Shown here: positions 36,429 through 61,392 of the stretch, piece after piece
Numbering within the stretch: the stretch's first letter is position 1
Layout of the letters: every line of letters starts with the position of its first letter
Source of the DNA: Victivallales bacterium
Lineage (GTDB): Bacteria > Verrucomicrobiota > Lentisphaeria > Victivallales > GWF2-38-69
Assembly: GCA_965228125.1 (NCBI GenBank)
Contig: OZ245791.1
Location: 385,596 to 449,595 of the forward strand
Length of the DNA: 64,000 nucleotides
Direction of reading: 5' to 3'
Made by a program: the position numbers and the translations under genes
The notes under the pieces: generated by a model
Told to the model about the DNA's origin: nothing
What the model saw: the letters and a program-made list of their open reading frames with translations, nothing else
Databases searched by the model: none

Positions 36429-36487
36429 ACAAGGCCTAACGTCTTCCTTAGCAAAATTTACGAATAGCCGTCCACTTTGTTGTCACC
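36429..36487 (-). pseudogene. Remnant of a GNAT gene 3' end (duplicate of the 37157..37639 C-terminus)
   Basis: The minus strand reads GDNKVDGYS*ILLRKTLGL, against the intact GNAT C-terminus IDNFIVNGYSELLLRKTLGPL. It has an in-frame stop and no upstream ORF. Confidence 0.65.
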
Positions 36488-36492
36488 ATTAT

Positions 36493-37083
36493 TTAGGAGA
36501 CACTAAGGCGTATTTCATTTGCGTAATCTCTAACAAAATCATGTGCTGTAAGTTTATGCTCGGTAATAGAAACAAAAACCTGATTAAAATTAATAAGACC
36601 TTTATAATTATTTATAAAAGAGTTATAGGGAATATTAAAACCTATCAGATTAACTAACACGCGGTTAAAATTAATGTTTCTTATATTTCCTGAAACAAAC
36701 CGGCTATATGAAATATTATGTTCTATGAGATAAACCAGAACATTATCAAGATCCAAACTCTTTCTATATTTTGATATCACCCTTTTATATGGAATATCCT
36801 TGGCTATCAAATTCACTATAAGATGGTCTAGATTAACATCTTTTTTATGCCGCTCGATATACTCTTCGTAACCCGTATTCTTAGCAACCAGATTCAGCAA
36901 TACGGCAATATTTTTATTTTTATCTTCTAAGATTGAAGAAGATAGCTTCTTGTTCCCAAAACAGCCTTTTTGCGAATTAACTGTATTAGCTTTTTCCACC
37001 CTGCCCCTCTTGTTATCCTTATTTATAGTTAAATTTAAGACTACTAATAAAGTAAATATACCCAATAATTGGGTGCAAAGCAA
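36493..37083 (-). CDS. Hypothetical exported/anchored protein with about five tandem 27-aa repeats
   Basis: N-terminal hydrophobic helix. Repeats of the form (I/L)N(F/L)(D/N)xVLVNLIxxNIxYxxFIxxYxx. I recognise no family. Confidence 0.5.
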   Translation of the reverse strand: MLCTQLLGIFTLLVVLNLTINKDNKRGRVEKANTVNSQKGCFGNKKLSSSILEDKNKNIAVLLNLVAKNTGYEEYIERHKKDVNLDHLIVNLIAKDIPYKRVISKYRKSLDLDNVLVYLIEHNISYSRFVSGNIRNINFNRVLVNLIGFNIPYNSFINNYKGLINFNQVFVSITEHKLTAHDFVRDYANEIRLSVS

Positions 37084-37156
37084 TGATAATTATTCAATCC
37101 CTCATACTAGGTGCTGAAATAATAATATTGATGATATAAACCGTCTAAGAAAAATG

Positions 37157-37639
37157 CTATTGGGCTCTATATCCCTTTAGAGGGCCTAACGTTTTCCTTA
37201 ACAGGAGTTCCGAGTAACCGTTCACTATAAAATTATCGATTTCCCCTATCTGCTTATATCCTAATTTATAGTAGAATTCCTGGGCTTTCTTGTTGAACGA
37301 AGAAACACAGATAAACACATTGGGAACTACTCTGAAAATTTTATCTTCAGCGAACTTAATAAGTTCAGATCCTACGCCTGAGCCCCTAGCCTCTTTAGAA
37401 ACAGCCAGGCATTTGATATAGCCTCTGAAAGTCCCATGCATGTAGAGAACTATAAATCCCAAAACAGTATCGCCTTGTTTCGCCACAAATGTTTCATTCA
37501 GGCTGTCTTTGAACATTTTTATTAAATCATCATATCCGATATTCAAGGTTTTCCATGGATCAGAATTTATCATCATCATTGTGCACTCATGAATTTCCCC
37601 ATCCGCAGAAAGCGGAACGATCTTGATTTCTCCATTCAT
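37157..37639 (-). CDS. GNAT family N-acetyltransferase
   Basis: 160 aa. ARGSGVGSELIKFAE acetyl-CoA motif. Confidence 0.75.
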   Translation of the reverse strand: MNGEIKIVPLSADGEIHECTMMMINSDPWKTLNIGYDDLIKMFKDSLNETFVAKQGDTVLGFIVLYMHGTFRGYIKCLAVSKEARGSGVGSELIKFAEDKIFRVVPNVFICVSSFNKKAQEFYYKLGYKQIGEIDNFIVNGYSELLLRKTLGPLKGYRAQ

Positions 37640-37666
37640 TATTAAGTTTCCTGGAATCTTTAGAGT

Positions 37667-38530
37667 TTAAGAAATGGATTCTATTGCATAAGATGCAGTA
37701 AAGTTTTTCCCACCATCTAGACTGATGATTCCTGGTTTCTGTTCAAGTGTTCCTTTAAAGTCGGCAGGATCATTATATCCAAACCAAGGTTCTATGCATA
37801 CATAATCGGCCCCGGGCTTAGCCCATATGCCCAAGTCAGGCGCTCCGCCAAAACAAACCTTTACGCATCTTTTGGTTTTATCATTCTTCAAATAGGCAAA
37901 GCGGGATTTTATCCCCGTAAAAATAAGAGCGTCTTCGTCAAAAATGTGGCTGCTGAGCCTGAAACTCCTCTCGTTATTCATGAATGGAGTTTTAAGCCTC
38001 TCAAGCAGCCCGTCATAAAGTTTGTACAGATAAACGGTTTCCGGCTGTTCAAACTCAATGTAATAATCTTCATGACATGTATCCTTAAGAGGCAAGTCTA
38101 TTGCCGGATGGCTGCCCAAGCTGAAAAACATTTTCTTATTATCAGTATTTTTAACTTCGTATTCTACAAGAAGTTTTTTTTCGGAAACAATGGAGAATTT
38201 AACGCTGAATTCAAAGTTGAAAGGATAGATTTTTAAAGTCTCTTCGCTGGAGAAAATAGAGAATTTGACTGATGATTCTGTTTTATCGGTTACCTCAAAT
38301 TTCTTATTCCTTACAAAGCCGTGTTTGGACATTTCATATTCTTTGCCGTCGTATGAATATTTGTTATCCCTGACTAACCCCACAAAAGGGAAAAGAACCG
38401 GTGCGGAACTATTCCAAATAGCCGGAATTGTTTGCCAAACCATTTGTTTGCCAGCAGCCTTGAAAGACTTAAGTTCAGCTCCGATTTCATTTATTTGCGC
38501 CGTAGAATTCCCAAGTTTAATTTCCTGCAT
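37667..38530 (-). CDS. Aldose 1-epimerase-family protein
   Basis: 287 aa. LFPFVG..., HGF(V)RN, SLGSHPA and CIEPW motifs of the galactose mutarotase-like fold. Confidence 0.8.
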   Translation of the reverse strand: MQEIKLGNSTAQINEIGAELKSFKAAGKQMVWQTIPAIWNSSAPVLFPFVGLVRDNKYSYDGKEYEMSKHGFVRNKKFEVTDKTESSVKFSIFSSEETLKIYPFNFEFSVKFSIVSEKKLLVEYEVKNTDNKKMFFSLGSHPAIDLPLKDTCHEDYYIEFEQPETVYLYKLYDGLLERLKTPFMNNERSFRLSSHIFDEDALIFTGIKSRFAYLKNDKTKRCVKVCFGGAPDLGIWAKPGADYVCIEPWFGYNDPADFKGTLEQKPGIISLDGGKNFTASYAIESIS

Positions 38531-39053
38531 ATTGCCGCCTTATATTTTTGAAAGTTACAAAATCTTACCTTGGTTTATAATTTTAAGGCGAATCCGTACA
38601 ACTGCAACAAAATCTTCTTTATAATAGTTCCGGTTTAGCATAAGCATTTAGTCATCAAACAGAGACAAGTAAATCTTAGTTCTTTCCAATGATCATCGAT
38701 ATTCTCCAAATTATCACTTGCCATGAATGCTAACAGCCCTTACTGCGACGTCTCTCGTAACAAGAAAAATCCCAAATAATTATTATAAAAAGATGCACTC
38801 CTCTATAAAAACACAGTGGCGGAATTTACAGAAAAATCATAAAATAAAGAGTAGCACTTTTGTTAAAAAAGAGAATCTGCATAGAGCCAATTAAATATTT
38901 GCATTCTATCGGCTGTTGTTTTGTACTCATTGAATTCTAATGATTTGAATAAAAAATGCACAAATCCGTATTTAAGGAGTTCGCTTAGGCCGCTTCTTAA
39001 TGTTAAGACATACCTTTTTGGGGAAAAAACAGATGGATTTTAGGAGTAAACTT

Positions 39054-39980
39054 ATGACAAGAACTGCTTATATTTCTGCTTTATTGGTTTGGCTGGCCAT
39101 TCTCTCTAGTTGTTCAAACTACATAACTACTGAAACAACTCAGAGTATGGATATTACCAGAACTCCAATAAAAAGTGAGCCTTCTTTAGAAGTCTCTGGC
39201 ATAAATAGCGAATCTATCATTAAGATAAAAGCAGAAAAGCTAATAGAGGAAAAAGTAGTTACAGACGAAGTCACAAAAAGAGAAGATGTCAGCACTCCGT
39301 ACAGAGGATACAGGAAACTCTACCAAATGCCATTAGGGCTTTTGCTCTTTCCTGCAGCAATAGTCGTAAGTGTCGCCGATGTATGTACATTAGGCCTGAT
39401 CCCAAATAGATTTACTGACGACCTGCTCGATTATTCTTTTACCGGAATGAACCCATTTCTTTGCTGGGAAGACAATAGCACCACAGTACGAACCCTGGAA
39501 TCATCAACCAAAAGGCAAATTGATGCCAAAGAGGAAATTACTGTGCTGCCATTGAGAAATGTTGACCTATACATAGTCAGTAATACTTCAGAAACATTCG
39601 ATTTAAAAATCGATGATAATAACCATTTGAATGTAACGTTGGTAAAAATAGCAGTTGAAGGAATTAAGAATCCGATTGACTTGCGTTATTTTGATCTCTA
39701 CTTAGAAAGCACTAACAACAAACCTGTTACCAAAATAGTAATAAGCAGAAAAATGGCTTTTAAATTCTTAGAAGCAAAAAAAATGGTTGACTCTCTGCAA
39801 ATAAACTCGTCTCCTGCAAATCTGGTTGAATGTGTGCTTGGACTGGAGAATCTTGGCTTTTCTGAGTATGCACTGAATGTTGAAAACGAATACAAAGAGA
39901 AAAACATTTCGGTTCCGGGATATAATGAGCAGTTTGATTCAGAAATGAAAAAGCAAATGAAGTTTTTCCCGCTAAATTAA
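39054..39980 (+). CDS. Lipoprotein, unknown function
   Basis: The ATG at 39054, 7 nt after AGGAG, gives MTRTAYISALLVWLAILSSC with a lipobox (LSSC). The rest has no recognisable family. Confidence 0.6.
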   Translation: MTRTAYISALLVWLAILSSCSNYITTETTQSMDITRTPIKSEPSLEVSGINSESIIKIKAEKLIEEKVVTDEVTKREDVSTPYRGYRKLYQMPLGLLLFPAAIVVSVADVCTLGLIPNRFTDDLLDYSFTGMNPFLCWEDNSTTVRTLESSTKRQIDAKEEITVLPLRNVDLYIVSNTSETFDLKIDDNNHLNVTLVKIAVEGIKNPIDLRYFDLYLESTNNKPVTKIVISRKMAFKFLEAKKMVDSLQINSSPANLVECVLGLENLGFSEYALNVENEYKEKNISVPGYNEQFDSEMKKQMKFFPLN

Positions 39981-40223
39981 GACACGAATGATTTCATCTA
40001 TGATTCTATAGAGAACTGCCCGAATAGATAGGTTCTTTCCAAAAAGCTTCCCGATAGAAATTCTAATCCTGATATTTTGAGTCCTAAGAAAAAAGTTTTA
40101 ATTTTTGTATTTTGTAACACATTTATTGCGGCTTATTTAATATATCTTTATCTAACCGGCCGGCTTATTATCTTTTAAGTGAGGTTGAAAACTCCCTCTT
40201 TCTAATTAATATTAGCCTTGAAG

Positions 40224-41495
40224 ATGGAGTTAAAACTAGAGAAAAAATCAATCCTGTATGCAATAGCAGGTACAGTCCTGGAGTGGTACGATTTTACCAT
40301 TTACATATATCTTGCGCCCATCCTCTCTGATATATTTTTTCCTACACACGATAAATTCGCTACATTGGTTTCAATATTCGCCATATTTTTTGCAGGATAC
40401 CTTGCCCGCCCGATCGGAGGAATGTTCTTTGGAAGTCTGGGCGACAGGATAGGAAGAAAAAACACCTTGATTATTTCTATTTCTCTCATGACTCTCATGA
40501 TGATCATTACATCAATACTTCCCTCATACGCTCTAATAGGAATAGCAGCTCCTGTCCTTCTGGCTTTTACCAGGATTTTCCAGGGATTTTCCGTGGGTGG
40601 GGAATATTCAGGAGTGCTGGTGATTTTATCGGAAAAAGCGCCTGAGGGGAAAAGAGGAATCATTACATCCCTTGGGCCATTGGTAAACGGATTTGGCCTT
40701 ATTGCAAGTTCAAGCGTAGTCGCAGTGCTTTATGAAACAATGACTAAAGAGCAAATGATGACATGGGGATGGAGAATACCTTTCATAATAGGGTCTATAG
40801 CTGGGATTTTTTTGGTGGCACTAAGAACCAAAATGACAGAATCAGCTCATTTTGAATTATTAAAGTCTCAAAACAAACTATCAAAAAGCCCACTTCGCGA
40901 AGTGATAGCCCAATACCCTAAAAAAATACTTCTGGGAATGTCTCTCAGCGGATACGGGAGCATTGTTTATTATGTGACGATCGCATTTATTCCGACACTT
41001 CTGAGTTCATATCTCCATGTTCAGGAAAATATTGTAATGATGTTTTCTACGATTACAGCGATATTTTACACTCTTACTGCTCCATTCTGGGGCTTTATCT
41101 CAGATAAATTCGGGAGAAAAAAAGTATTAACTTGCGTTGCTGCCTTAATAGCAATACTAATCGTTCCTCTGTTATTGCTCATGTCATATCATAATCTAAT
41201 GGCTATCTTGGCAGCTGAAATAATATTAACGCTTTTAGCCGTAGCATTCGGTGTCTCATATGACACTGCCACTACAGAGCTATTCCCTACCAAGGAAAGA
41301 TTCAGCGGGATGGCAATAAGCTACAATGTCGGAATATCTCTCTTAGGAGGAATATCCCCTTTAATATGCACCTTCTTAGTGAAACTAATCGACAGTCCGC
41401 TCGCACCGGGATATTTTTTAATTATTTGCTCTCTTTGCATGCTTGTGGCTCTTACAAAGATGAAAGAGACTGCGTTTATACCTCTTGAGGATTAA
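40224..41495 (+). CDS. MFS metabolite:H+ symporter (MHS) family transporter
   Basis: EWYDFTIY, GGMFFGSLGDRIGRK and 12 TM. The track start at 40218 is a TTG two codons upstream. Confidence 0.8.
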   Translation: MELKLEKKSILYAIAGTVLEWYDFTIYIYLAPILSDIFFPTHDKFATLVSIFAIFFAGYLARPIGGMFFGSLGDRIGRKNTLIISISLMTLMMIITSILPSYALIGIAAPVLLAFTRIFQGFSVGGEYSGVLVILSEKAPEGKRGIITSLGPLVNGFGLIASSSVVAVLYETMTKEQMMTWGWRIPFIIGSIAGIFLVALRTKMTESAHFELLKSQNKLSKSPLREVIAQYPKKILLGMSLSGYGSIVYYVTIAFIPTLLSSYLHVQENIVMMFSTITAIFYTLTAPFWGFISDKFGRKKVLTCVAALIAILIVPLLLLMSYHNLMAILAAEIILTLLAVAFGVSYDTATTELFPTKERFSGMAISYNVGISLLGGISPLICTFLVKLIDSPLAPGYFLIICSLCMLVALTKMKETAFIPLED

Positions 41496-41601
41496 TACTT
41501 AGGCTCCTGTACATTTTTATCAAGTATAGACTTTTTCATACATTTCAGTTAGACTTTAAAATGCATCTCTTTAAGTAAATTCTTTCAATCTGAATATCGT
41601 T

Positions 41602-42462
41602 ATGGAAATTTACATCGGGCTTGACATCGGCGGCACAAAAATAATGGTTGGCGCAACTGACCCCAATGGAAAAGAATTGTCCAGAATTAATGTAAGTACA
41701 CCACAGTCGCTAAATGAAGGGCTGGAACTACTGCACAAATTGATTGAGAAAGTATCCAAAAAGAACTCTATTCTAGGAATAGGCGCCGCTATAGGAGGGC
41801 CGCTGGATTCGGAAAAAGGAATAGTTTCCCCGCTCCATCAGGAAGAATGGAGAAACATCCCTTTAAAAGAACTCATGGAAAAAAAATGGAACTGCCCTTT
41901 TTATGTCGATGTTGATACGAATGTCGCCGCTCTTGGAGAATACCATTTAGGTAAATACAAAGAAAAATATTTCCTGTACATCACTTTAAGCACAGGAATG
42001 GGCGGAGGATTCCTTATAAACGGCAAAATCTATCATGGGCTTTCTCATCCTGAAATAGGCCATCAACGCATCAGTTACCATTGCTCGCATCCAGAAAGAG
42101 TCCAATGCGAATGCGGCGGCGGTTCATGCCTAGAGGCACTTGTTTCAGGTAACGGTATAAGGAGAATCTACCATAAGAATGCAGAAAATCTTGACCGCCA
42201 TGAATGGAAAGAAGTAGCATATAACTTAGGTATGGGACTGAGAAATATTACCACCATTCTTTCACCGGAAATTATAGTTTTTGGTGGCGGCGTGGCCCTT
42301 GGCGGAGGAGAATATCTGATGGAATACGCAAGCAAATATATGCTTACAGGACTTAAACTGGTCAAGCCTCCGGTTCTCAAACTTTCCTGTTTAGGCTATG
42401 ATACAGCTTTGAACGGAGCATATTTTATCGCCACAGGAAAGCATTTGGCAATAAGCCATTGA
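41602..42462 (+). CDS. ROK-family sugar kinase
   Basis: GLDIGGTKI N-terminus. Zinc motif GHQRISY..HPERVQCECGGGSCLEA. Confidence 0.85.
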   Translation: MEIYIGLDIGGTKIMVGATDPNGKELSRINVSTPQSLNEGLELLHKLIEKVSKKNSILGIGAAIGGPLDSEKGIVSPLHQEEWRNIPLKELMEKKWNCPFYVDVDTNVAALGEYHLGKYKEKYFLYITLSTGMGGGFLINGKIYHGLSHPEIGHQRISYHCSHPERVQCECGGGSCLEALVSGNGIRRIYHKNAENLDRHEWKEVAYNLGMGLRNITTILSPEIIVFGGGVALGGGEYLMEYASKYMLTGLKLVKPPVLKLSCLGYDTALNGAYFIATGKHLAISH

Positions 42463-42577
42463 TATTGTTTCAGGGATTTTCTTGCGTTAGTTATCATGAA
42501 TGCTTCTATCCTTGGCAAAAACCTTTTTCAAGCTATAATCAGTTTTTATTCATAAACATGAACCGTTACCAGCAAGC
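42427..42577. repeat. Direct repeat copy 1 (last 36 nt of the ROK gene plus downstream spacer)
   Basis: Segment A (42427-42465) and segment C (42500-42577) recur at 45622-45660 and 45827-45902. Confidence 0.8.
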
Positions 42578-42605
42578 ATGACAGGACTCCGAAACTTGAC
42601 ACTTT

Positions 42606-43181
42606 ATGATTAAAACCAGAAATCTTCTCATTTCGATAGTATTACTCTTTAGTTTAATTGGGTTGAATGGATACGCTCAAAATACAACAAGAATTATTAG
42701 AAAAGATAACAATACATATGAAGTTTTTTGTGAAATTACATTTCCTAACAATTGCATTGACAAACTTTGGGATTTTTGTTGGGACATGAATAGTATTTCA
42801 AGAATACTAACAAATGAACCTGTAACCATTATTTTTTCTGAGGCAAATTCCATTCAAACCATTTCATACGATTATCAGTTCTTATTTATGCACTATTACT
42901 CAGAATATGAGCGAGAACAAAGTCCGAATAAAAAAATGATTAGTTTTAAACTCACAAAAAGTGAATGTTCAATACCCTTTATACCTAATTTGGAAAATGG
43001 CTATGGCACTTACACTTTAAAAACTAACAATAAAATAACAACGATGCAATACTATCAATATACTAAAACCAATGGCATTTTGAGTGACTTCTATTTTAAT
43101 TATATAAAAAAAGACATTGAAGGTTTTTTCTTTAGTTTTGAGTCTGAATTTAAAAAATCCTTAAAGAATGCTAAAAACTAA
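42606..43181 (+). CDS. Secreted hypothetical protein (signal peptide; possibly SRPBCC/START-like)
   Basis: MIKTRNLLISIVLLFSLIGLNGYAQ signal peptide. Aromatic-rich beta-type sequence. The stop overlaps the next start by 14 nt. Confidence 0.55.
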   Translation: MIKTRNLLISIVLLFSLIGLNGYAQNTTRIIRKDNNTYEVFCEITFPNNCIDKLWDFCWDMNSISRILTNEPVTIIFSEANSIQTISYDYQFLFMHYYSEYEREQSPNKKMISFKLTKSECSIPFIPNLENGYGTYTLKTNNKITTMQYYQYTKTNGILSDFYFNYIKKDIEGFFFSFESEFKKSLKNAKN

Positions 43182-44091
43182 ATATTTGCTTAACTCATTT
43201 AAATATTCTTTTCGTACAAAGCTTCTAAGGCAAAAAACTCCTTTTATTGCAGGGATTGTATTAAACAATGAGTGCAATTTATCATGCAGTCAATGTTCAT
43301 TGCAATTGGAAAGCAAAACATCATTGTCGTATCAACAAATATCAGATGGCTTAGACGAATTATATTCAATGGGAATACGTTCAATAGCAATAACTGGAGG
43401 CGAGCCTTTTATGTGGAAAGATGGCACGCTAAGACTAAACAATATAATAGATTTAATTTACAAGAAGAAATTTCTGGTTTCGAGTGTCTATACCAACGGT
43501 ACGTTTGCATTGAATACCACCTTTGACAATGTATTTGTAAGCATAGACGGAACAGAATTAACAACGAACAAACTTCGTGGTCCAATATTTAATAAAGTCA
43601 TTGACAATATTAAAGCATCAAACCATCCAAAAATATTTGTTAATTTTACTATAAATAGCCAGAATTTTCCCGAAATAGAAGTGTTCTGCCAGTACATAAA
43701 AACTATTCCTCAAATTAAAGGCATATTCTTTTATTTTTATACACCTTATAATACGATTGATAATTTATATTTGGAAAGGAGCAAAAGAATTGAAATAGCT
43801 AAAAGTCTCATTGCTCTTAAAAAAAAGTATATAATTTTAAACTCAAAAGCAGCACTTACTGATTTTATTAATGACAACTGGAGTCGACCATCGGAAGTTT
43901 GTGTGGTGTATTCAGATAAAGCAGAAATTGTAAAATGTTGCAGAGCAGTAAAAAACAAAGCAACCTGTAAAGATTGTGGATATTTGGGCTATTTAGAAGT
44001 TCTTGATGTAACTAAATTTAAGTTAAGTGCAGTATGGGAGGCATTCAAATATTTACCAAGTAAAAAATCAAGAAAATCATATGTTAATTAA
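43168..44091 (+). CDS. Radical SAM enzyme with a C-terminal Cys cluster
   Basis: CNLSCSQC (CX3CX2C), GGEPFMW, and C-terminal CVVY..CCRAVKNKATCKDCGY, suggesting an auxiliary Fe-S site. Confidence 0.8.
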   Translation: MLKTKYLLNSFKYSFRTKLLRQKTPFIAGIVLNNECNLSCSQCSLQLESKTSLSYQQISDGLDELYSMGIRSIAITGGEPFMWKDGTLRLNNIIDLIYKKKFLVSSVYTNGTFALNTTFDNVFVSIDGTELTTNKLRGPIFNKVIDNIKASNHPKIFVNFTINSQNFPEIEVFCQYIKTIPQIKGIFFYFYTPYNTIDNLYLERSKRIEIAKSLIALKKKYIILNSKAALTDFINDNWSRPSEVCVVYSDKAEIVKCCRAVKNKATCKDCGYLGYLEVLDVTKFKLSAVWEAFKYLPSKKSRKSYVN

Positions 44092-45355
44092 TACAATAAC
44101 GAATGGTATTCGTTCGTACTATGCTGGTAATTCAAATCAGTTTACATTTACAAAACATCATACTCCTGACTTCGATAACCACAGTTTTGACAGCTTGCAT
44201 TTATACATACATGTTCCATTTTGTGCAAACAAATGCCCATATTGTCCATACAATAAAATTGAAGTTGATACTGTTTTAGTAACGCAATTTTTCAATGCCC
44301 TTCATACTGAAATTGAACTATATTTTAATAAACTTGGGAAAATAAATCTCCCATCCATTTATTTCGGAGGGGGTTCTCCCGCATTGTTTCCAGAAGAAAT
44401 ATGTAAAGTTATAGATCATTTATCGAAACGATTTTCAATAAAAGGAGAATATTGTATTGAAATCAACCCCAATGACTGTTTTTTTGAAGAACTACAAGCT
44501 TTGAAAAATGGGGGTATAAGTACGGTAAGCATTGGGGTTCAATCTTTTAATGATAAAAACTTAAAAACAATTGGACGTTCTTATAATGGCAATATTGCCG
44601 AAAAAGCAGTTGAAATGGTACGTAGTATTTTCGATTCGGTAAATATTGATTTAATGTTTGCATTGCCAGCACAGGACGAGATTAGTATATTGAAGGACTT
44701 ATCTAAAGCAGTAAGTTATGGGGTAACTCAAATTACCACCTATCCGCTGTTTACATTCCCATATTCAAAAGTTGGTGATTATAAGAAAATAAAGCATGTG
44801 AAAATGCCAAAATTGAGAACACGAAAAAAGCAATATTTCACAATTTATGATACACTTATACAACAAGAATATAGTCGAGTATCGGTTTGGAGCTTTAAAA
44901 AGGGAGCAGGGAACAAATATTCATCAGTAACACGCGATGGCTATTTGGGAATGGGAGCAGGAGCAGGAACACATATGCCTAATGGCTATTATTTGAATAC
45001 CTTCCCAGTTAAAGCATATATTTCGGCATTAGAAAAAGGGAATTTTCCTTTAGCCCTAAAATTTAACATGAATACCAATATTAATAATTTGTTTTGGCTT
45101 TATTGGAGATTTTATGATACAAAGATTCCACTTGCCGATTTCAATAGTCGATTTAAAAATAATGCAAAGATAAAAAAACTATTATTTCTTTTCCAGACAA
45201 TGGGATTGCTTTCTGTTACCCCAAATGATTTTGTTTTAACACGAAAGGGGTCGTTTTGGCTTCACTTAGCACAAAATTATTTCTCTTTAGGTTATATAAA
45301 TAAAATTTGGTCGAATGCAATGAATAATGATTACCCTAAAGAAATCAATTTTTAA
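44081..45355 (+). CDS. HemN-like (class C) radical SAM enzyme
   Basis: HVPFCANKCPYCPY signature, GGGSP and GVQSF motifs. The ATG at 44081 overlaps the upstream stop by 11 nt; the track start at 44027 is rejected. Confidence 0.8.
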   Translation: MLINTITNGIRSYYAGNSNQFTFTKHHTPDFDNHSFDSLHLYIHVPFCANKCPYCPYNKIEVDTVLVTQFFNALHTEIELYFNKLGKINLPSIYFGGGSPALFPEEICKVIDHLSKRFSIKGEYCIEINPNDCFFEELQALKNGGISTVSIGVQSFNDKNLKTIGRSYNGNIAEKAVEMVRSIFDSVNIDLMFALPAQDEISILKDLSKAVSYGVTQITTYPLFTFPYSKVGDYKKIKHVKMPKLRTRKKQYFTIYDTLIQQEYSRVSVWSFKKGAGNKYSSVTRDGYLGMGAGAGTHMPNGYYLNTFPVKAYISALEKGNFPLALKFNMNTNINNLFWLYWRFYDTKIPLADFNSRFKNNAKIKKLLFLFQTMGLLSVTPNDFVLTRKGSFWLHLAQNYFSLGYINKIWSNAMNNDYPKEINF

Positions 45356-45621
45356 GAACTTTATAAAATGCCAGCAGGTAACAACGGGTATATCCAATGC
45401 GGGTTTCAGAGTTTTTGCAAGTTTAGTTCCCGCAGGCAAGTTTTGTATCGTGGGATAAGAGACGCAGCCACGCAAACCCCAACATCGCATACCGACGACC
45501 GTTAGCTAAAATACTACGCCGCATGAAGACAAAAAGAAAGAGATACGCGCTACCAGGAAGCAAAAACCGAGGATTTAGGTTCGGCTTAAGGTAGAATTAC
45601 CCCCTCAAGGGTTCATGTTTC

Positions 45622-45902
45622 ATCGCCACAGGAAAGCATTTGACAATAAGCCATTAATATCGCTACTGCGTCGTCAGAAGCCGTATCACTGTCGAGGTTC
45701 TTGAATTCTCACACCCGAGACGACCGTGATACGTAGCACGGGCATCTTGCCCGTGTTTATTTTCGAGTTTTAAAGAACCTAATCAATATATATTCATTAG
45801 CACCAAGCATATGTCATTTATCGCTAATGCTTCTATCCTTGATAAAAACTTTTTTCAAACTATAATCGGTTTTACTCTGAACATGAACCGTTAACGCCAA
45901 GC
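45622..45902. repeat. Direct repeat copy 2 (pseudo-copy of the ROK 3' end plus spacer, expanded by a hairpin-containing insert)
   Basis: A2 (45622-45660) differs from A1 at 2 of 39 nt. C2 (45827-45902) is roughly 80-85% identical to C1 by eye. The middle part is about 130 nt longer. Confidence 0.8.
45737..45763 (+). terminator. GC-rich hairpin plus T-run (REP-like family member / intrinsic terminator)
   Basis: CACGGGC-ATCTT-GCCCGTG followed by TTTATTTT. Preceded by a second 13-bp stem (45682-45694 with 45721-45733). Confidence 0.5.
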
Positions 45903-45927
45903 TTAAAAAGACAGACGCAACATAACT

Positions 45928-46833
45928 ATGATACCAGATTTTCAATCAATTATGCTTCCGTTCTTAAAGATAATTTCTGACGGAGAAGAACATACAACTA
46001 TTGAGACAAACCAAAAGTTGGCGGAACATTTCAACTTGACAGCCGAAGAACTAGACGAATATCTTCCAAGTGGAGCGCAAAAGACTTTTCCGAATCGTGT
46101 TGCTTGGGCTAAATCTTATTTAAAAATGGCAGGACTTCTTAAAAATACAAAACGGAGTTCATTTAAACTTACGGAGACTGGGAAAAGTCTTCTTGACACA
46201 AATCCAGAAGAAATTAACCTTAAATTTTTAAAAACAATTCCAGCTTATCAAGAAAGGACAGGTCGAACACGAGACGAGGATTCTTCATCAGACTCAGATA
46301 GTTCTCAAACATCAGCGACTCCTGAAGAGGTTTTAGAAAATAGTTATTTAACTATTCGAAAGAGTTTAGCACAGGAATTACTTTTCAAAATTAAAAGTAG
46401 CAGCCCTGCTTTCTTTGAAAGTTTGGTAGTCGAATTATTGGTAAAAATGGGATATGGTGGTTCAATCAAAGATGCTGGTCGTTCTATTGGACGTTCAGGA
46501 GACGAAGGAATTGATGGAATTATTAAAGAGGACAAGCTCGGACTTGATGTAATTTATGTGCAAGCCAAAAGATGGGAAAACGTTGTTGGCAGACCAGAGA
46601 TTCAGAAATTTGTTGGAGCTTTAGCCGGACAAGGAGCAAAAAAAGGAGTATTCATCACAACTTCACGCTACACCAATGAAGCAAAAGAATATCAACCGAG
46701 AAATGAGTCTAAAATAGTTTTGATTGACGGAGAGCAATTAGCTGAATTAATGATTGACCATAATCTTGCAGTATCGACAGTCAATACTTTTGAGATAAAA
46801 CGAATTGACAATGATTACTTTGGAGACGAATAA
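45928..46833 (+). CDS. mrr: Mrr-family restriction endonuclease
   Basis: N-terminal Mrr_N winged-helix pattern (FQSIMLPFLKIISDG..., NRVAWAKSYLKMAGLL). Catalytic core GDEGIDGII...LDVIYVQAKRW. Confidence 0.85.
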   Translation: MIPDFQSIMLPFLKIISDGEEHTTIETNQKLAEHFNLTAEELDEYLPSGAQKTFPNRVAWAKSYLKMAGLLKNTKRSSFKLTETGKSLLDTNPEEINLKFLKTIPAYQERTGRTRDEDSSSDSDSSQTSATPEEVLENSYLTIRKSLAQELLFKIKSSSPAFFESLVVELLVKMGYGGSIKDAGRSIGRSGDEGIDGIIKEDKLGLDVIYVQAKRWENVVGRPEIQKFVGALAGQGAKKGVFITTSRYTNEAKEYQPRNESKIVLIDGEQLAELMIDHNLAVSTVNTFEIKRIDNDYFGDE

Positions 46834-46978
46834 AAGCCTGGTGTTAACAAAAACTATATGTCAATTGGGGTTTCCGTGTTGACAACAAAGTCCGTAGCCC
46901 GCACCTACTTAATATCGGCTTGACAGGAAATCGCCTGCAATCCACACCTGCGTGTAGCTTCCAACGTTAAAATTTCAT

Positions 46979-48529: not shown

Positions 48530-48667
48530 TTTATCAGGCGCTTATTTAGAATAATTTAGGAATATGAATTTAATTTTTAAGAGCTAAAATTCATTAGATT
48601 ATAGACTAAAATTTTAGTAAAGCTATATTTAGAGAACAGTATGAACTTCAAAATAAGGGGAGGCAAT

Positions 48668-52800: not shown

Positions 52801-52818
52801 CTAAGAACCTATTTACTC

Positions 52819-54248: not shown

Positions 54249-54340
54249 AAAATCGCCTTTTCCTTAATTTGTTAGCATACCTTGTTACAGTAAAGCAGAA
54301 TTTATTCTAAACAACCGTGGTAAGAATTCTTTTCTCATGT

Positions 54341-55246
54341 TTAATATCGTGCTGCATCTTTAAAAAGAGCCAGAATAGTCTCTTTCTTGTAGCCAAGTCC
54401 TATTAGGACAAGCGTCGTTGTCTTAAAGTCGTTAAAGTGAGCCAAAGCGTCTTTAAGTTCGGCTTTTTCTGTAGTGCCGTCAACTATATATTCTTTCCCG
54501 TCTATTCTGGCAAATCCTTTCAGCCTGAAAACCACCTCTTTAATCTTATCCAAAAATTGATTGAAGCTATCAAAAGTAAAACCCTTATCCGATTCAAGAG
54601 TCATTGAATTAAAAGGGTCTGGCAAACCGCTTCCAGGAAGCTCATCTGCGATGGTTCCTTTCCTATCTAAATTATCCAGTAGGCCAACGTCCAAATCTGC
54701 GTACTTTGTAGCTATGACAGGAGTCATAGGAGCTAAACTCTTAACGCTTTCTTTTACTTTATCTAAAGCGTCATTATCAACCAAATCTGATTTATTGAGC
54801 AGAACAATGTCTGCGGATTCCACCTGAGACACAGGAGCTTTTGCGTATTTTCTTATCTTGATAAAATTAGTGGCATCGACCAGACAAACACATGCTTTAA
54901 GACGAATCCTGTTTCTCAGTGACGGAAGAGACAGCATCTTCTCCATCTCGTCAGTATCAGCAAGGCCGGTGGCTTCAATTATCAGAAGATCGGGTTTAAT
55001 CCTGTCAGCTATTCGTTCGACTTCCTTGATGAAATCAGTCCTGATGCAGATGCAGAAAAGACTCCCTTTATTAAGTTCGACCTTCTCATAATTTCCTTGC
55101 CTCAGAAGAGTTCCGTCAATCCCGACAGAACCGAATTCATTAATAAGTAAAACGCTTCTCTTAGAGCGATAATGCCCAATAAGCCTATTAAGCAATGTTG
55201 TCTTTCCTGCGCCAAGAAAACCCGTCAAAAGAATTGTTGGGATCAT
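54341..55246 (-). CDS. CobW/COG0523-type G3E GTPase
   Basis: GFLGAGKTTLLNRL P-loop and IIEATGLAD. CICI sits where the family usually has CxCC. Confidence 0.8.
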   Translation of the reverse strand: MIPTILLTGFLGAGKTTLLNRLIGHYRSKRSVLLINEFGSVGIDGTLLRQGNYEKVELNKGSLFCICIRTDFIKEVERIADRIKPDLLIIEATGLADTDEMEKMLSLPSLRNRIRLKACVCLVDATNFIKIRKYAKAPVSQVESADIVLLNKSDLVDNDALDKVKESVKSLAPMTPVIATKYADLDVGLLDNLDRKGTIADELPGSGLPDPFNSMTLESDKGFTFDSFNQFLDKIKEVVFRLKGFARIDGKEYIVDGTTEKAELKDALAHFNDFKTTTLVLIGLGYKKETILALFKDAARY

Positions 55247-56865: not shown

Positions 56866-57146
56866 AGTTTCTGTCTCCTAAACAACTGAATGTTTTCTAA
56901 ATTAATTCCAGAAAAAATCTTCTCCTCTTCTATTTTAGAGCTTCCATATAAAATAACAGCAGCCACTAAAATAGAAAGTCTTTTTATCTCCATGCTATCG
57001 TCGTAAATGCTAAAACGGAGCAGATAAACTACGATAAAAGCCAAACACTGGAAATAGCCAAGTCAAAAAAATAATAGTTGAATTAAACTTGCGCATTTCT
57101 ATGTTATAATAACCATAGAATTAACTTAACAAAACTATTCATTAGA

Positions 57147-57794
57147 ATGGATTTGAAAAGCATAAAAAAAGCCATACCAAAAACGCCAGGAGTAATCTGG
57201 AGTAAACACTACAGAAATGCTTCCATTTTTATTCCGCTTGTAAAAATTAATAAAGAGTATCACCTTCTTTTCGAAATTAGAAGCGAAGGAATAAGACAGG
57301 GCTCTGAAGTCTGCTTTCCTGGCGGCAGAATTGATAGCACTCTAGACAAATCTGAAAAAGACACTGCTCTAAGGGAAACAGTTGAAGAGCTTGGAATAGA
57401 TAAAAAGAAAATAAGTATTATAGGCCAGTACAATACATTGGTTCATCACATCGGAATGCTTATTTATACTTTCGTAGGGTTGCTTAAGATTAAGTCTCTT
57501 GATGAACTCAATATAGACAAAAAAGAAGTTGCTTCGGTCTTTACACTTCCACTGAGTTATTTCAAAGAAAATCCCCCGTCTGAATACAGATTAAGAATAG
57601 AGGCTAAACCTGAAATAATAGATGAAGCAGGCAACAAAATTACACTTTTTCCTGTAAAAGAATTGGGGTTGCCAGATCGCTATCTAAAACCATGGGGTTC
57701 GGATGATCACAAAGTAATCGTTTATAAAACACCAAAAGCTGTCATCTGGGGGATGACGGCCAATGTAGTTCATGATTTTTTAGATTCTATTTAA
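57147..57794 (+). CDS. NUDIX hydrolase, CoA pyrophosphatase-like
   Basis: LLFEIRSEGIRQGSEVCFPGG plus Nudix box ...ALRETVEELGI. Confidence 0.75.
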   Translation: MDLKSIKKAIPKTPGVIWSKHYRNASIFIPLVKINKEYHLLFEIRSEGIRQGSEVCFPGGRIDSTLDKSEKDTALRETVEELGIDKKKISIIGQYNTLVHHIGMLIYTFVGLLKIKSLDELNIDKKEVASVFTLPLSYFKENPPSEYRLRIEAKPEIIDEAGNKITLFPVKELGLPDRYLKPWGSDDHKVIVYKTPKAVIWGMTANVVHDFLDSI

Positions 57795-57838
57795 TTTTTT
57801 ACTGAATAACATTACCTGAGGCAAAGCAGAAATATAAT

Positions 57839-59767
57839 TCAACCGAAACCAGGAAGAAAATCATCCTCTTTCTTATTGATCGCTTCTTCTCTGTTTTGTA
57901 AAGGTTTAATGCTTTTCAGCCATTCTTCAAGCGATAATGTCCTAACTCCAAGCAATCTGGCTCTCTTAATTTTAGAGCTTTCAGATGAGACATCAGCAGC
58001 CACTAAAACAGAAAGTCCCTTTGTTACGCTGTCAACAGCTTTGTACCCTTGTTTTGATGCTAAATCCTCATAGAAGGATCTTTTCTCTGGCATCTCTCCG
58101 GTAAAACAGATTGACCTCAGATCTTCTTTGAGAGAAGAACCTTTGGTATTTGATATTTTGACACACTCCAAAAGTTCATCAATAATATCAGATTTCTCAC
58201 GAAAAGCTTTAAAAATAGCTTCAGACATTGTCGGCCCAATCTGGTCAATTTGTAAAAGCTCATCCCGAGACATTTGTCTTAATTCGCCTAGTGAATGTTC
58301 AGTAAGAATCTTAGATGCTAAAGTCTGACCTAAGCCTTGGATATTCAAACTTGCCACCAACTGATAATCAGTTGTCTCTCTGGCCATCTGGATGTTCTTA
58401 TATAAGTTGGACGCTGATTTTTCTTTAAAACCATCAAGTTTGAGTATGTCGCTCTTTGTCAATTTGAATATATCGGACAGAGATTTAACTCCCAAAGTGT
58501 TAATCATTTTTCTTATAGTAGGTTCGCCCAGTTCCTCTATTCCGATATTGCGGACTGACGCAAGAATCCTCTGTAATTTTGTCTCCGGACAGTCAGGATT
58601 GATACACCGCAATTCCTTATCATCTCTGGCAAGTTTGAATGAACATGACGGACACTCTGAGATAATGCATGGTTTGCGTTCATCTCCAGGTTCCGAATCG
58701 ACAATATGCGGTATGACATCTCCTGCCCTTTCGACAGTAACAATATCTCCTATCTGAATATCCCTCTCCTCAACATTGGCAATGTTGTGTAAAGTAACGT
58801 TAGAGATTGTAACTCCGCCTATTTCGACCGGCTCAATTCTCCCGACCGGAGTCAAACAATTCTTGCCAAAACTCCATTCCACGCCAATCAGTCTGGATTT
58901 CTTCCTTAATCCACTGAATTTAAATGCTATCTGTCCTCTCGGATGATGCGCAGTTTCGCCTAGTGATTCGCTGTAAGTTTCATCAGCAAGTTTGACTACT
59001 ATACCATCCATCGGATATGGCAGATTTTCTATCTCATCAACGACAGATTCCCATTTGCCTTCTATCTCATTAAACGGCACAGAATATGATATCATGTCAT
59101 AGTCAACAAGGGTGAGTTTTGCACCTTGGACAAGCATAGGTTTTATATCTTTGAGCCCCATGATTCCTGCAACGGCGTTGCGTGGATTCTTATATGATGA
59201 ACCATCAGTTTTCTTTATCCTAGAGTAGAGGGTTTTAAAGTCATCATCCCTGATGATTATCTCTCCTCTGACATATCTATCCAGAGTACCCTTGTATCCG
59301 GTCGTCTCAAGTTCGATCAATGGAACTTTGTCCGTCACATTCTCATCTTCCGTTCCCTGCCCTCTTGTGGCAAGAATACCATTTGAGTAACATGAGGATA
59401 TCCCATCGTACTTGGGTTGAATCAGAAAAATCTCGTCTTCACTTCTCTTTATTTCTGACGCCCATTTAATCAAACTCTTTTTGCCTTTAGGAGCATCTTT
59501 GAAGAAATAAGTTTTCTCCAGTGAGATCATTGGCTTGTTAAGTACAACCTTGCCAAGACTTGCCACATCGGCAGAACCCACAGTATCCAGAAGCGGGTTC
59601 TCTGGATCAAGCTCTTCAAGCCTTTGAAGCAGCAAATCATAATATTCATCCGATATCTCTGGAGTGTTCTTATCCCAATAGAGCTTATTATGCCGCTCAA
59701 TCTCTTGAACAAGCTCTTCCAAACTAAACTTTTTTATCTTATCAGTATCCATTCTCTTCCGTACCAT
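57839..59767 (-). CDS. ligA: NAD-dependent DNA ligase
   Basis: 642 aa. Adenylation motif QPKYDGIS, Zn finger CPSCSFKL...CINPDCP, HhH region, C-terminal BRCT. The first two codons lie inside a repeat, so M6 is an alternative start. Confidence 0.9.
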   Translation of the reverse strand: MVRKRMDTDKIKKFSLEELVQEIERHNKLYWDKNTPEISDEYYDLLLQRLEELDPENPLLDTVGSADVASLGKVVLNKPMISLEKTYFFKDAPKGKKSLIKWASEIKRSEDEIFLIQPKYDGISSCYSNGILATRGQGTEDENVTDKVPLIELETTGYKGTLDRYVRGEIIIRDDDFKTLYSRIKKTDGSSYKNPRNAVAGIMGLKDIKPMLVQGAKLTLVDYDMISYSVPFNEIEGKWESVVDEIENLPYPMDGIVVKLADETYSESLGETAHHPRGQIAFKFSGLRKKSRLIGVEWSFGKNCLTPVGRIEPVEIGGVTISNVTLHNIANVEERDIQIGDIVTVERAGDVIPHIVDSEPGDERKPCIISECPSCSFKLARDDKELRCINPDCPETKLQRILASVRNIGIEELGEPTIRKMINTLGVKSLSDIFKLTKSDILKLDGFKEKSASNLYKNIQMARETTDYQLVASLNIQGLGQTLASKILTEHSLGELRQMSRDELLQIDQIGPTMSEAIFKAFREKSDIIDELLECVKISNTKGSSLKEDLRSICFTGEMPEKRSFYEDLASKQGYKAVDSVTKGLSVLVAADVSSESSKIKRARLLGVRTLSLEEWLKSIKPLQNREEAINKKEDDFLPGFG

Positions 59768-59826
59768 GGGTATCCTGCCCGTGTGTTTTATCTTATTATT
59801 TACACGGGCGAGACGCCCGTGCTACA
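59762..59826. repeat. Direct repeat DR1 (double GC hairpin unit overlapping the ligA RBS and start)
   Basis: TACCATGGGTATCCTGCCCGTG-n19-CACGGGCGAGACGCCCGTGCTACA. About 86% identical (9 differences by hand alignment) to 61327-61392. Confidence 0.8.
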
Positions 59827-59863
59827 TTTCAATTTCATACCCTTCCGTATGGGTTGCGACACA

Positions 59864-60913
59864 TCATTTACTCTCACTTTCGTCATCAAGTTGCATTTCC
59901 TGCATTAAAGACAATTTCAACGCATCTGCATCTGGAAGATTATCTTTAAACTCTTTAGGCAGTTTCTTCGTAAAATAGTATTCAGCTACACCTATAGGCT
60001 TTCTGGCACCGCGTAGCGCATATTCAACCACAATGTTTTCTTTATCTGCGCACAAAATAATGCCAATAGAAGGATTCTCGTCTTTTAACCGCACCTGTTC
60101 ATCCAGAAGATGCAGATAAAAATCCATCTTCCCTGCATATTCAACTTCAAATTTGCCTGTTTTAAGTTCAATCGCCACAAGGCATTTAAGTTTTCTGTTG
60201 TAAAATAGCAGGTCGATGAAGTATTCATTATCATTTAATGTCAGGCGATATTGATTACCGATAAAGGAGAAACCAAAGCCAAGTTCCAATATAAACTGCT
60301 TCATTTTCTCGATAAGTCTCTTTTCCAGTTCTCTTTCAAGCACAGGCTTTGTGATTCCCAGAAAATCGAGATTATAAATGCTTTTGATCGATTCATCAGC
60401 CTGCTCGGCAAGATGGGTAGGTAAAACTTTTGAAAAATTATGAGTCTTTTGTTTTAGACTCATCTCATAAGCGCCTGCCTTTATCTGATTTAAAAGCACA
60501 TTTCTTGACCAGCCAAATTCACGAGACGATCTAAGATAATATTCCCGTTCTTTATCTAAGGCTACTTTTTCCATAACCAACACATTGTGACCCCACGGTA
60601 ATTCTGCAACAAGCTGTTGCAGAATTAGGGTGTCTTTGTATTCCTCATAAAATCTGCGCATATTCCAAAGATTTCTTTCCGAAAACCCTAATGAGCCGGG
60701 TAAGGCTTTTTTCAAATCGCGGGCAAGTTGTTCTATTATAGATTCGCCCCATTTATATTTTTTCTGCCGTTCAACAATGCTTCTGCCAATATCCCAGTAG
60801 AGCATTATAAGCTCTTTATTGACAGCTCGAACAGCCTGAATCCTGGCAGTGACAATCCTGGACTTTATCTCATTGAGGAAACTAACATATTCTTTTGTAA
60901 TTATGCTTTTCAT
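59864..60913 (-). CDS. yhcG: YhcG-type PDDEXK nuclease (DUF1016)
   Basis: 349 aa. LPWGHN, FLGNQYRL-type FIGNQYRL and FIDLLFYNRKLKCLVAIELKTGKF (D...E-x-K core) motifs. Confidence 0.85.
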   Translation of the reverse strand: MKSIITKEYVSFLNEIKSRIVTARIQAVRAVNKELIMLYWDIGRSIVERQKKYKWGESIIEQLARDLKKALPGSLGFSERNLWNMRRFYEEYKDTLILQQLVAELPWGHNVLVMEKVALDKEREYYLRSSREFGWSRNVLLNQIKAGAYEMSLKQKTHNFSKVLPTHLAEQADESIKSIYNLDFLGITKPVLERELEKRLIEKMKQFILELGFGFSFIGNQYRLTLNDNEYFIDLLFYNRKLKCLVAIELKTGKFEVEYAGKMDFYLHLLDEQVRLKDENPSIGIILCADKENIVVEYALRGARKPIGVAEYYFTKKLPKEFKDNLPDADALKLSLMQEMQLDDESESK

Positions 60914-60921
60914 TTTAACCT

Positions 60922-61252
60922 CTACTTTTCTCCCTCTACGATTTTTATCTCGTCATCGGTCAATCCATATAATTCACAAACAAGTCTGTCTATCTCTAGC
61001 TCAAGTTAATATCGACCTGTTGTATTCACCCCATAATGAACGAAGGAAATGGTGTCCACATCGACCATAAGTGTTACAGATATTATCTGCATCATTTTTA
61101 CAGTTGTTGTCGTAAAGTTTTTTAACAATAGATTCAATCATATCAAGTAATTCTTTGCCGTATTTAAGGTTTTGTTCCATTTGTTCTGATAATTTTTCTA
61201 AGTAAACTAAAGTATTAGAAAAATGTTTATCCATATCATTGCCACGGGTCAA
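60922..61252 (-). pseudogene. Decayed fragment of a restriction-modification (N6-methylase/specificity type) gene
   Basis: Minus frame at 61002-60922 reads ELEIDRLVCELYGLTDDEIKIVEGEK*, the stereotyped C-terminus of type I/IIG R-M methylase proteins. It is out of frame with the 83-codon ORF 61001..61252 upstream. Confidence 0.55.
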
Positions 61253-61326
61253 TACACTATCTTCCCCTTATATTATACCATTTTGCAGCTAGACCTTTTT
61301 CTTTGCAGTAGTGTTTTCCTTCCCCA

Positions 61327-61392
61327 TACCATGGGCATCCTGCCAATGTTTCTTATCTTAGTTATTTACACGTGCAAGACGCCCGTGGTACA
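61327..61392. repeat. Direct repeat DR2
   Basis: TACCATGGGCATCCTGCCAATG-n20-CACGTGCAAGACGCCCGTGGTACA: a second copy of the ligA upstream unit, sitting just downstream of ade. Confidence 0.8.

Follow-up and report, generated by a model that had tools for sequence, protein, structure and literature searches.

Diverged duplicates of gene ends flank small gene islets between core genes of a Victivallales bacterium

Results

Repeat-flanked islets in a run of gene-turnover hotspots

A stretch of 64,000 nucleotides from a Victivallales bacterium (contig OZ245791.1; this whole 64-kb stretch is referred to as the window) was analyzed for small islets of accessory genes that lie among core genes and are flanked by diverged duplicates of the neighboring gene end or intergenic block. 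Four such islets were found: a single open reading frame (ORF) at the junction of a sugar-transporter and a GNAT gene (case 1), a radical-SAM gene unit and an Mrr gene between a ROK and an MFS gene (case 2), a YhcG gene and a small ORF between an adenine deaminase gene and ligA (case 3), and a NUDIX hydrolase gene beyond ligA (case 4). Hotspots of gene turnover follow one another between the conserved core genes from 36 to 61 kb, and in case 2 the duplicate is the edge of a block of DNA exchanged recently with a related lineage.

When the whole window was compared to itself by BLAST, 10 non-self matches were detected at an expect value (E) of 1e-3 or less. Half of these (5/10) were the islet repeat pairs, with E of 3e-7 to 6e-16; the other 5 were an attC pair, two within-gene repeat matches, one palindrome and a pair of paralogous sugar-transporter genes. 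The three repeat pairs of the original prediction (cases 1 to 3) were, by this comparison, present where it had placed them and far beyond chance. Its statements that no recombinase is encoded inside the islets and that the repeats are not transposase target duplications also held, as no islet ORF matched a recombinase or transposase family in Pfam or NCBIfam, and the repeats were 49-300 nt in length and 74-91% identical, with no transposase gene in the window islets. The architecture that it had described as recurrent was found once more, in case 4, but other islets (an ORF326 and MFS425 pair in the window and the islets of relatives L001 and L010, introduced below) were without flanking repeats, and the pattern is therefore not general. 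No sequence core common to all four repeat pairs was detected by self-BLAST. Exact runs of 10-21 nt were present in every pair (e.g., ATCGCCACAGGAAAGCATTTG in case 2), as would be expected anyway at such identity. Islets 1, 2 and 4 were G+C-poor, at 30%, 32% and 34%, respectively, vs 38-40%. Rfam and tRNA scans of the window returned nothing, and thus no tRNA target and no known RNA was found in the islets.

The relatives used for comparison were Lentisphaerota metagenome sequences, the nearest to the window ROK and ligA proteins, with 73-84% protein identity. Syntenic contigs were fetched via ROK (L001, L008 and L009), via aldose epimerase (L010 and L011) and via ligA (L018, L019 and L020). 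Genes shared with the window were 74-82% identical in DNA, and identity at fourfold sites was 28-48% for the ROK, aldose epimerase, aminotransferase, sugar-transporter and ligA genes, a level at which silent sites are saturated. The window ROK and ligA proteins each formed a singleton cluster, on one contig of 3,081,560 nt.

Three sites were compared over L001, L008, L009, L010, L018, L019 and L020, and different cassettes were found between the same core flanks in these species-level relatives. In the gap between the sugar-transporter and GNAT genes, the window holds ORF196; L001 has a 370-aa ORF together with a NUDIX fragment there, and L010 has an unrelated gene for a Mac/hexapeptide acetyltransferase. 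The ROK-MFS gap holds the radical-SAM unit and Mrr in the window, two other genes in L001 and a 285-aa GNAT gene in L008, and is reduced in L010 to 35 nt before a convergent MFS gene. In the window YhcG and ORF83 lie between adenine deaminase and ligA; an IS200-family transposase gene takes this position in L018 and L020, and in L019 the gap is 38 nt. On the 3' side of ligA, a DEAD-box helicase gene in L018 and L020 stands vs NUDIX, URO-D/thioredoxin and CobW-family genes in the window.

Nearby in the window, a 3-kb insert at 38554-41515 (ORF326 and a 425-aa MFS transporter gene) occupies the gap between aldose epimerase and ROK and has no flanking repeats; these two genes adjoin in L001, L009, L010 and L011. 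Directly downstream of ROK in L009, a tRNA-like candidate was noted by eye at 3915-3990 on the minus strand. The sugar-transporter genes are two tandem paralogs (33704-36405, ~65% DNA identity), an arrangement also present in L001 and L010.

The ROK gene end and the L008-like block

The features of case 2 are as follows (REP, repetitive extragenic palindromic).

42412-42465, plus strand: working ROK 3' end, encoding ...LNGAYFIATGKHLAISH and stop.
42486-42587, plus strand: spacer copy 'b', with a sigma-70-like promoter TTGGCA-16-TATAAT at 42512-42539; closest to the second copy of L008 (85-88%).
42565-45382, plus strand: cargo, a discrete three-gene unit of ORF191 and two radical-SAM genes, with ends GTTACCAGCAAGCAT and ATGCCAGCAGGTAAC.
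45383-45606, no strand: stretch of ~220 nt between the radical-SAM unit and the ROK pseudo-copy, including an attC-like imperfect palindrome that folds no better than shuffles.
45607-45660, plus strand: ROK 3' pseudo-copy, encoding ...LKGSCFIATGKHLTISH and stop, one residue off the C-terminus of L008 ROK; left edge of the L008-like block.
45661-45812, plus strand: segment of the right copy and L008 only, with a degraded hairpin and the hairpin CACGGGCATCTTGCCCGTG (45737-45755) then a T-run, terminator-like or REP-like.
45813-45912, plus strand: spacer copy 'a', with promoter TTGATA-16-TATAAT at 45839-45866; positional match to the L008 spacer just downstream of ROK.
45890-46848, plus strand: Mrr restriction-endonuclease gene, bracketed by GTTAACGCCAAGCTT and AAGCCTGGTGTTAAC.
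46965-48463, minus strand: MFS516 gene and 3' flank, 90-93% identical to L008; the recently exchanged block.

Two repeat pairs were detected here by self-BLAST, one of the ROK end (42419-42465 vs 45614-45660, 91%, E 1e-11) and one of the spacer (42491-42577 vs 45818-45902, 83%, E 6e-16). The predicted repeat of ROK end plus spacer is real, but its right copy contains ~150 extra nt with the terminator- or REP-like hairpin. Over 291 nt, the right copy (45607-45912) was 86% identical to L008 and had the same order of parts, namely ROK 3' end, hairpin doublet and downstream spacer. In a sliding comparison of the window to L008, identity was 83-89% over 45604-45892 and 90-93% over 46965-48463 (L008 9333-10856), with lower values across the working ROK gene (72-83%) and rightward of 48464 (62-80%). 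The right border of this L008-like block falls at 48464-48613, the 5' end of MFS516, and the Mrr insert interrupts the block. MFS516 shared 72% fourfold-site identity with L008, vs 28-48% in the five core genes, and was the sole clear outlier when protein identities to the relatives were compared gene by gene; its protein identity to the MFS gene at the same position in L001 and L010 was only ~50%.

The tail of the ROK pseudo-copy, ...KGSCFIATGKHLTISH and stop, is of the L008 type, and the working copy has N and Y where its six closest homologues have K or R and C. Counted by eye over 56 nt, the pseudo-copy differs from L008 at 5 positions and the working copy at 11, including the two replacements of conserved residues. 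Taken together, the sliding identities, the fourfold sites and the L008-type tail identify the ROK pseudo-copy as the left-hand limit of a block that was exchanged with an L008-like lineage well after the species had separated, and not as a resident gene end that decayed; no other single result of the analysis is as strong. Two lineages are thus involved in case 2, the apparent duplicate being an overlap of resident and imported versions of the same stretch.

The spacer has a core of ~85 nt, with a promoter that faces the cargo and matches the sigma-70 consensus at 11/12 positions. L008 also has two spacer copies, located on either side of its own GNAT gene. The right copy of the window was closest to the first copy of L008 (79-82%), and the two window copies were 78-81% alike. 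Since the L008 copies bracket a gene of their own and copies are alike across species, the spacer duplication is not tied to the insert of the window. An exact-pattern search of the JGI metagenomes for the spacer core and motif gave no match.

The ligA leader and dispersed hairpins

Case 3 comprises two copies of a short block and the cargo between them.

59759-59827, minus strand: ligA-side copy, with hairpins at 59765-59783 and 59803-59821 and the leader including the ribosome-binding region.
59864-61252, minus strand: cargo, the YhcG/DUF1016 PD-(D/E)XK nuclease gene (59864-60913) and ORF83 (61001-61252).
61324-61393, minus strand: adenine-deaminase-side copy, with the same two hairpins, partly degraded, and a pseudo-leader.

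The two copies (59759-59827 vs 61324-61393) matched over 70 nt at 86% identity (E 8e-15, self-BLAST). The ligA leader is repeated, as predicted, but the ligA coding sequence that had been thought to be part of the repeat is not, because the ligA start was placed by comparison with relatives at 59752 (ATGGATACT, after GGAAGAG). Thus, the repeat consists of the leader and two hairpins of a dispersed family. The hairpin CACGGGC-N5-GCCCGTG had 5 matches in the window vs 0.02 expected and was also intergenic in L001, L008, L018 and L020; the family (CAYGGG-N5-CCCGTG) is REP-like and dispersed. Sites of the form CAYGGGY-N5-GCCCGTG, often paired and often then a T-run, were located at 45737, 49881, 59765, 59803 and 61369 of the window and, in relatives, at 15666 of L001, at 7932, 7959 and 12217 of L008, and at 439, 759 and 12788 of L020.

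The gene found in L018 and L020 at the adenine deaminase-ligA site matched an IS200-family transposase (NF033573, 83.8 bits); the protein scored 84 bits as IS200 vs 22 bits as a REP-associated transposase (cut-off 80). The L020 gene is truncated, lies just upstream of ligA and has a similar hairpin block on either side, the two blocks being in direct orientation; in L018 hairpins were found on the upstream side only. A tblastn search of the window for a Y1 transposase gene detected none (best E 1.7). As the adenine-deaminase-side copy holds a degraded ligA leader, local sequence was duplicated here too.

The original prediction had singled out duplicates older than the inserts as evidence against it. 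Such evidence was found in part, with the L020 hairpin blocks bracketing the truncated IS200-family gene and the L008 spacer copies bracketing a different gene, and thus some duplicated blocks are not tied to the inserts of the window.

A hairpin element that carries YhcG was considered and rejected. The 80 YhcG relatives found in JGI metagenomes (55-77% identity) share the coding region only, and none has the hairpins or ORF83 nearby; thus, YhcG does not travel with the hairpins.

The sugar-transporter/GNAT junction and the NUDIX islet

The features of cases 1 and 4 are listed in order of position.

36389-36476, no strand: case 1 copy 1, the intact last 17 nt of the sugar-transporter gene and a ~70-nt GNAT 3' pseudo-remnant.
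36493-37083, minus strand: case 1 cargo, ORF196, encoding a tandem-repeat protein without a family match, in an islet of 30% G+C vs 38% for the window.
37138-37226, no strand: case 1 copy 2, a 17-nt sugar-transporter 3' pseudo-remnant and the working GNAT 3' end, in agreement with the consensus among relatives.
56932-56980, minus strand: case 4 pseudo-fragment of the ligA BRCT region, KRLSILVAAVILYGSSKIEE, on the far side of the NUDIX gene and just upstream of the URO-D/thioredoxin gene.
57147-57794, plus strand: case 4 cargo, the NUDIX hydrolase gene, in a segment of 34% G+C; absent here in L018 and L020.
57969-58017, minus strand: matching stretch in the BRCT region of the working ligA (self-BLAST pair).

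The repeat of case 1 (36389-36476 vs 37138-37226, 74%, E 3e-7, self-BLAST) is real but longer than the GNAT 3' end that had been claimed, as its 89 nt comprise 17 nt from the end of the sugar-transporter gene and ~70 nt from the end of the GNAT gene. The entire junction of two convergent genes is duplicated. The GNAT remnant of copy 1 reads KVDGYS*ILLRKTLG, with an in-frame stop. The pair of case 4, which the original prediction had not listed, matched over 49 nt at 86% identity (56932-56980 vs 57969-58017, E 2e-8, self-BLAST).

Inverted ends of the radical-SAM and Mrr units

The case 2 cargo, of which ORF191 encodes a secreted-type protein, has ends (GTTACCWGCAAGCAT and ATGCCAGCAGGTAAC) that are inverted repeats of each other. 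Homologous units (73-81% identity) retain these ends in three further contexts, namely L103, L104/L105 and, in degraded form, L022; L021 is without such ends. The ends of Mrr are similar to those of the radical-SAM unit, and its joint to spacer 'a' falls at the same nucleotide as the joint of the radical-SAM unit to spacer 'b'. In 3/4 spacer copies of the two species, ACCGTT is followed at once by the joint to a gene, a different one in each copy, and the remaining copy meets the MFS flank at GTTAAAA; similarity among the copies runs ~20 nt beyond GTTA. Inspection by eye revealed no direct repeat beside the inverted ends of either the radical-SAM unit or the Mrr unit. Inverted repeats with 12-13 matches out of 15 bracket 7/56 window genes, and thus the inverted ends are weak as a statistical signal alone, which counts against a reading of these units as cassettes.

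The sequence GTTAA(C/A) was noted at 45890-45895 and 46843-46848, the ends of the Mrr segment, at 46965-46969, and at 9333-9337 of L008, where the second spacer copy meets the MFS flank. This sequence may represent a microhomology of 5 nt or a core for recombination. Xer/dif modules are bordered by 28-bp XerC-spacer-XerD sites in inverse orientation; the spacer end, ATTCATAA-ACATGA-ACCGTTAAAAG, bears only a loose likeness to the proteobacterial dif consensus, which may differ from that of this phylum.

The radical-SAM operon, or its last gene alone, was found at 2487-3884 of L103, 2414-3819 of L104, 3701-5106 of L105 and 327-2460 of L022; the contexts of such units are several and unrelated, and the 15-nt inverted ends are conserved among them. 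L103 lacks ORF191 and the first radical-SAM gene, and the same leader is fused there straight to the last gene. In L104 (2001-2132 vs 3869-4004) and L105 (3288-3419 vs 5156-5291), direct repeats of 136 nt and 79-81% identity bracket the radical-SAM unit and correspond to the local intergenic region between two convergent genes of an unrelated organism. Two candidate features beyond the radical-SAM genes were rejected. The ~130 nt that follow them were considered as a covarying attC-like hairpin in five contexts and gave mixed z-scores (-2.75 to +0.99); homology among the contexts stops at GGTAAC, and thus the stretch probably belongs to the flanking DNA. A small ORF that begins with MPAGN varied from 7 to 45 codons, as judged by eye, and as its length was not conserved, it is not considered a gene.

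The integron and tests for site-specific recombination

The window contains an integron, with IntI encoded at 4936-6177 on the minus strand (TIGR02249, 402 bits) and at least 6 attC sites between 7.5 and 10.6 kb. The array ends near 11.1 kb, and the islets lie 25-50 kb from this end, among core genes. A covariance model (R1) was built from five window attC sites and used to score every window position with filters off. Only its five source sites were found in the window, with nothing outside of the integron at E<2 and none at the islet junctions, by a model that also misses the long attC of the integron itself at 9144-9270. When R1 was applied to ten related loci, nothing convincing was found. 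Palindromes at 45372-45512 and 46843-46974, picked by eye, folded no better than shuffles (z +0.44 and +0.14), compared to -2.7 to -4.1 for three short attC controls. With no attC at the islets by model, palindromes that fold like shuffles and no shared core, the site-specific route by way of this IntI, which the original prediction had offered as an alternative, was not borne out; IntI involvement is not supported.

The integron region (4936-11100) is 29% G+C, with an attI-like GTTAGAG near 6372 and cassettes that include a GNAT gene, a Phd/YefM-ParE pair and a second ParE gene. Internal direct repeats were noted elsewhere: within a 590-aa ORF of the window (22965-24737), repeats of ~66% identity and a period of ~258 nt occupy 23639-24328, and two tandem genes of ~570 aa in L022 (3063-6913) are rich in internal repeats (self-matches of 64-81% identity).

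Discussion

The diverged duplicates described here may be overlap scars of homology-anchored or illegitimate recombination at turnover hotspots, a reading to which we assign a probability of roughly 0.5. A segment from a related lineage would bring its own version of the neighboring gene end or intergenic block and become joined next to the version of that short stretch already resident. The joining would be homologous on at most one side, by homology-facilitated or plain illegitimate recombination, so that resident and incoming copies would both survive; one copy would stay functional and the other decay to a pseudo-remnant, and no dedicated recombinase or att site would take part. For case 3 there is an extra ingredient, as the repeated block is a hairpin doublet of the REP-like family and similar hairpins lie beside an IS200-family gene in relatives. 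The recombination mechanism itself, and the same origin for cases 1 and 4, are what we infer from these comparisons. [quoted passage not shown]

Several observations weigh against this reading. In case 1 the working copy is the consensus-like one, and simple decay of the remnant fits equally well. Cases 1 and 4 are without an identified donor. Whole-junction duplicates, such as those of case 1 and L104, need an earlier rearrangement in the donor if the event was linear and one-ended, and a single Campbell crossover would form them in one step. Joints at the same nucleotide of both spacer copies are not expected of random illegitimate joining. The empty-site comparison, moreover, rests on species-level relatives (74-82% DNA identity) and not on same-species strains or donors.

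Campbell-type integration, put forward in the original prediction, would have a circle with the cargo and a short diverged copy of the target enter by one homologous crossover, leaving the anchor duplicated on both sides. We regard it as unlikely, even though one step would suffice to produce the geometry seen here, with the whole-junction duplicates of case 1 and L104/L105 accounted for as well and with copies that span the same interval of ancestral sequence; the divergence between copies fits an anchor from another lineage, and a repeat-flanked islet could excise by looping and then insert at this locus in a relative. In case 2, the L008-like sequence resumes past Mrr to the 5' end of MFS516, and as it continues past the presumed anchor, the pseudo-copy is the end of a long imported block, not a short anchor. 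Its position at the far edge of the imported block, by a non-homologous joint, makes it look like a hitch-hiking flank and not an integration anchor. The parts of the case 2 repeat also differ in identity (91% vs 78-83%), the spacer copies being at least as like those of L008 as each other, and there is no evident source of circles. RecA-mediated recombination, in addition, works poorly on anchors of 50-90 nt at 74-86% identity. The involvement of DNA from a related lineage is supported by the case 2 block, which is 83-93% L008-like vs 72-83% for the working ROK gene, but a circular intermediate is not required. Divergence in place would dispense with a second lineage, the long target or a small tandem duplication having been identical at insertion and drifting later. 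Since silent sites are saturated (28-48%), repeats of 74-91% identity could post-date the species splits and still be lineage-specific, and in case 1 it is the pseudo-copy that shows a stop and extra changes, the working copy still following the family consensus. By contrast, the case 2 pseudo-copy keeps ancestral or L008-like states (5/56 vs 11/56 differences) and is contiguous with a block 83-93% identical to L008, and we know of no bacterial insertion mechanism that makes target duplications of 50-300 nt; this explanation seems distinctly improbable.

A site-specific origin would have cassettes inserted by the window IntI in trans, or by another enzyme that reads inverted unit ends, at an attI-like site between ...CATGAACCG and TTA at the spacer end. 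The window does contain a true integron integrase and an array of at least 6 attC sites, the ends of the radical-SAM unit are precise, inverted and conserved in three other contexts, with similar Mrr ends, and different genes follow ACCGTT in 3/4 spacer copies, with an outward promoter that recalls Pc beside attI. All the same, we consider this origin very improbable, as the attC model and folding were negative at the islets, and the model also in ten related loci, comparable inverted repeats bracket 7/56 window genes, the ends are degraded in L022 and missing in L021, the spacer similarity extends ~20 nt past GTTA, and the spacer motif was not found in the JGI metagenomes. It would explain case 2 at most, the junctions of cases 1, 3 and 4 being unrelated in sequence, and to our knowledge integron insertion does not duplicate 50-300 nt of target. 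A related and likewise very doubtful proposal is that the ROK-MFS516 gap is a cassette platform without an integrase of its own. In this proposal, discrete units with 15-nt inverted ends of the form GTTAMC-N-GCMRGCWT (the radical-SAM operon, Mrr and perhaps the L008 GNAT gene) would be inserted where the ~85-nt module with the outward promoter ends in ...CATGAACCG before TTA, by an enzyme in trans, IntI 36 kb away or another; the diverged flank duplicates, also present round the L104 radical-SAM unit in its unrelated context, would be a by-product of the same route. If an enzyme recognizes the radical-SAM unit ends, however, this would be a new cassette system. For case 3 alone, the hairpin blocks might be the ends of an IS200/IS605-derived element mobilized by a Y1 transposase in trans, with YhcG and ORF83 as passengers. 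An IS200-family gene occupies the same intergenic site in L018 and L020, the L020 blocks lie in direct orientation around a truncated gene, and the hairpin family is dispersed; set against this, no Y1 gene was found in the window, 80 YhcG relatives are without hairpins or ORF83, and the pseudo-leader on the adenine-deaminase side points to local duplication and not to element ends, making such an element exceedingly unlikely.

Overlap scars left by recombination with relatives, if this reading is correct, would provide a record of gene gain without visible mobile elements in a little-studied phylum, the Lentisphaerota. Pseudo-copies of core-gene ends would mark the edges of imported or resident segments and could serve as genome-wide markers of recombination. 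The idea of recombination with DNA from a relative, as originally predicted, was broadly right, and its site-specific alternative is unsupported.

Comparison with known systems

REP and IS200-IS605 systems resemble the present case in their dispersed, GC-rich intergenic hairpins, and a Y1 gene adjoins in relatives at the case 3 site. They differ in that the window is without a Y1 gene, the hairpin blocks are in direct orientation, and the protein of the relatives is of IS200 and not REP-associated type. Integron cassettes and integrase-less attC clusters are also small, discrete units without a recombinase, and an outward promoter, GTTA junctions and a real integron 30 kb away add to this likeness; unlike these, the units described here have no attC by model or folding, have inverted ends on both sides and not a single 3' attC, and are associated with long duplications. 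Integrative elements that target gene 3' ends, whose attP supplies a replacement gene end, leave direct repeats (attL/attR) that, as here, run from inside a gene through its stop, keep the gene intact and place the displaced end at the far border. By contrast, the present islets encode no integrase, have repeats of 74-91% identity and inserts of 0.66-3 kb, and occupy four sites of unrelated sequence, and the pseudo-end of case 2 is the edge of a longer foreign block.

Minimal mobile elements in Neisseria (Saunders and Snyder 2002, cited in PMC1538595) likewise place differing whole-gene cassettes between the same flanks, without mobility genes and with presumed recombination in the flanks. They are defined among strains within one species and are exchanged by clean double crossovers that leave no duplicates; here, the comparison is among species-level relatives, and the duplicates are diverged and partial. 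In the T6SS effector-immunity arrays of Vibrio cholerae and in Rhs and contact-dependent inhibition (CDI) orphan arrays, the flanks are toxin genes with a constant 5' and a variable 3' part, whereas the flanks here are housekeeping or metabolic genes; the remnants here are only 50-130 nt, and the mechanism is one that we infer. Like those arrays (PMC5361080), the islets of this bacterium present new genes beside a conserved gene, a 3' remnant on the far side, no recombinase, DNA of relatives and a mosaic structure. The process is thus already known from other bacteria, which makes the present result useful and not surprising.

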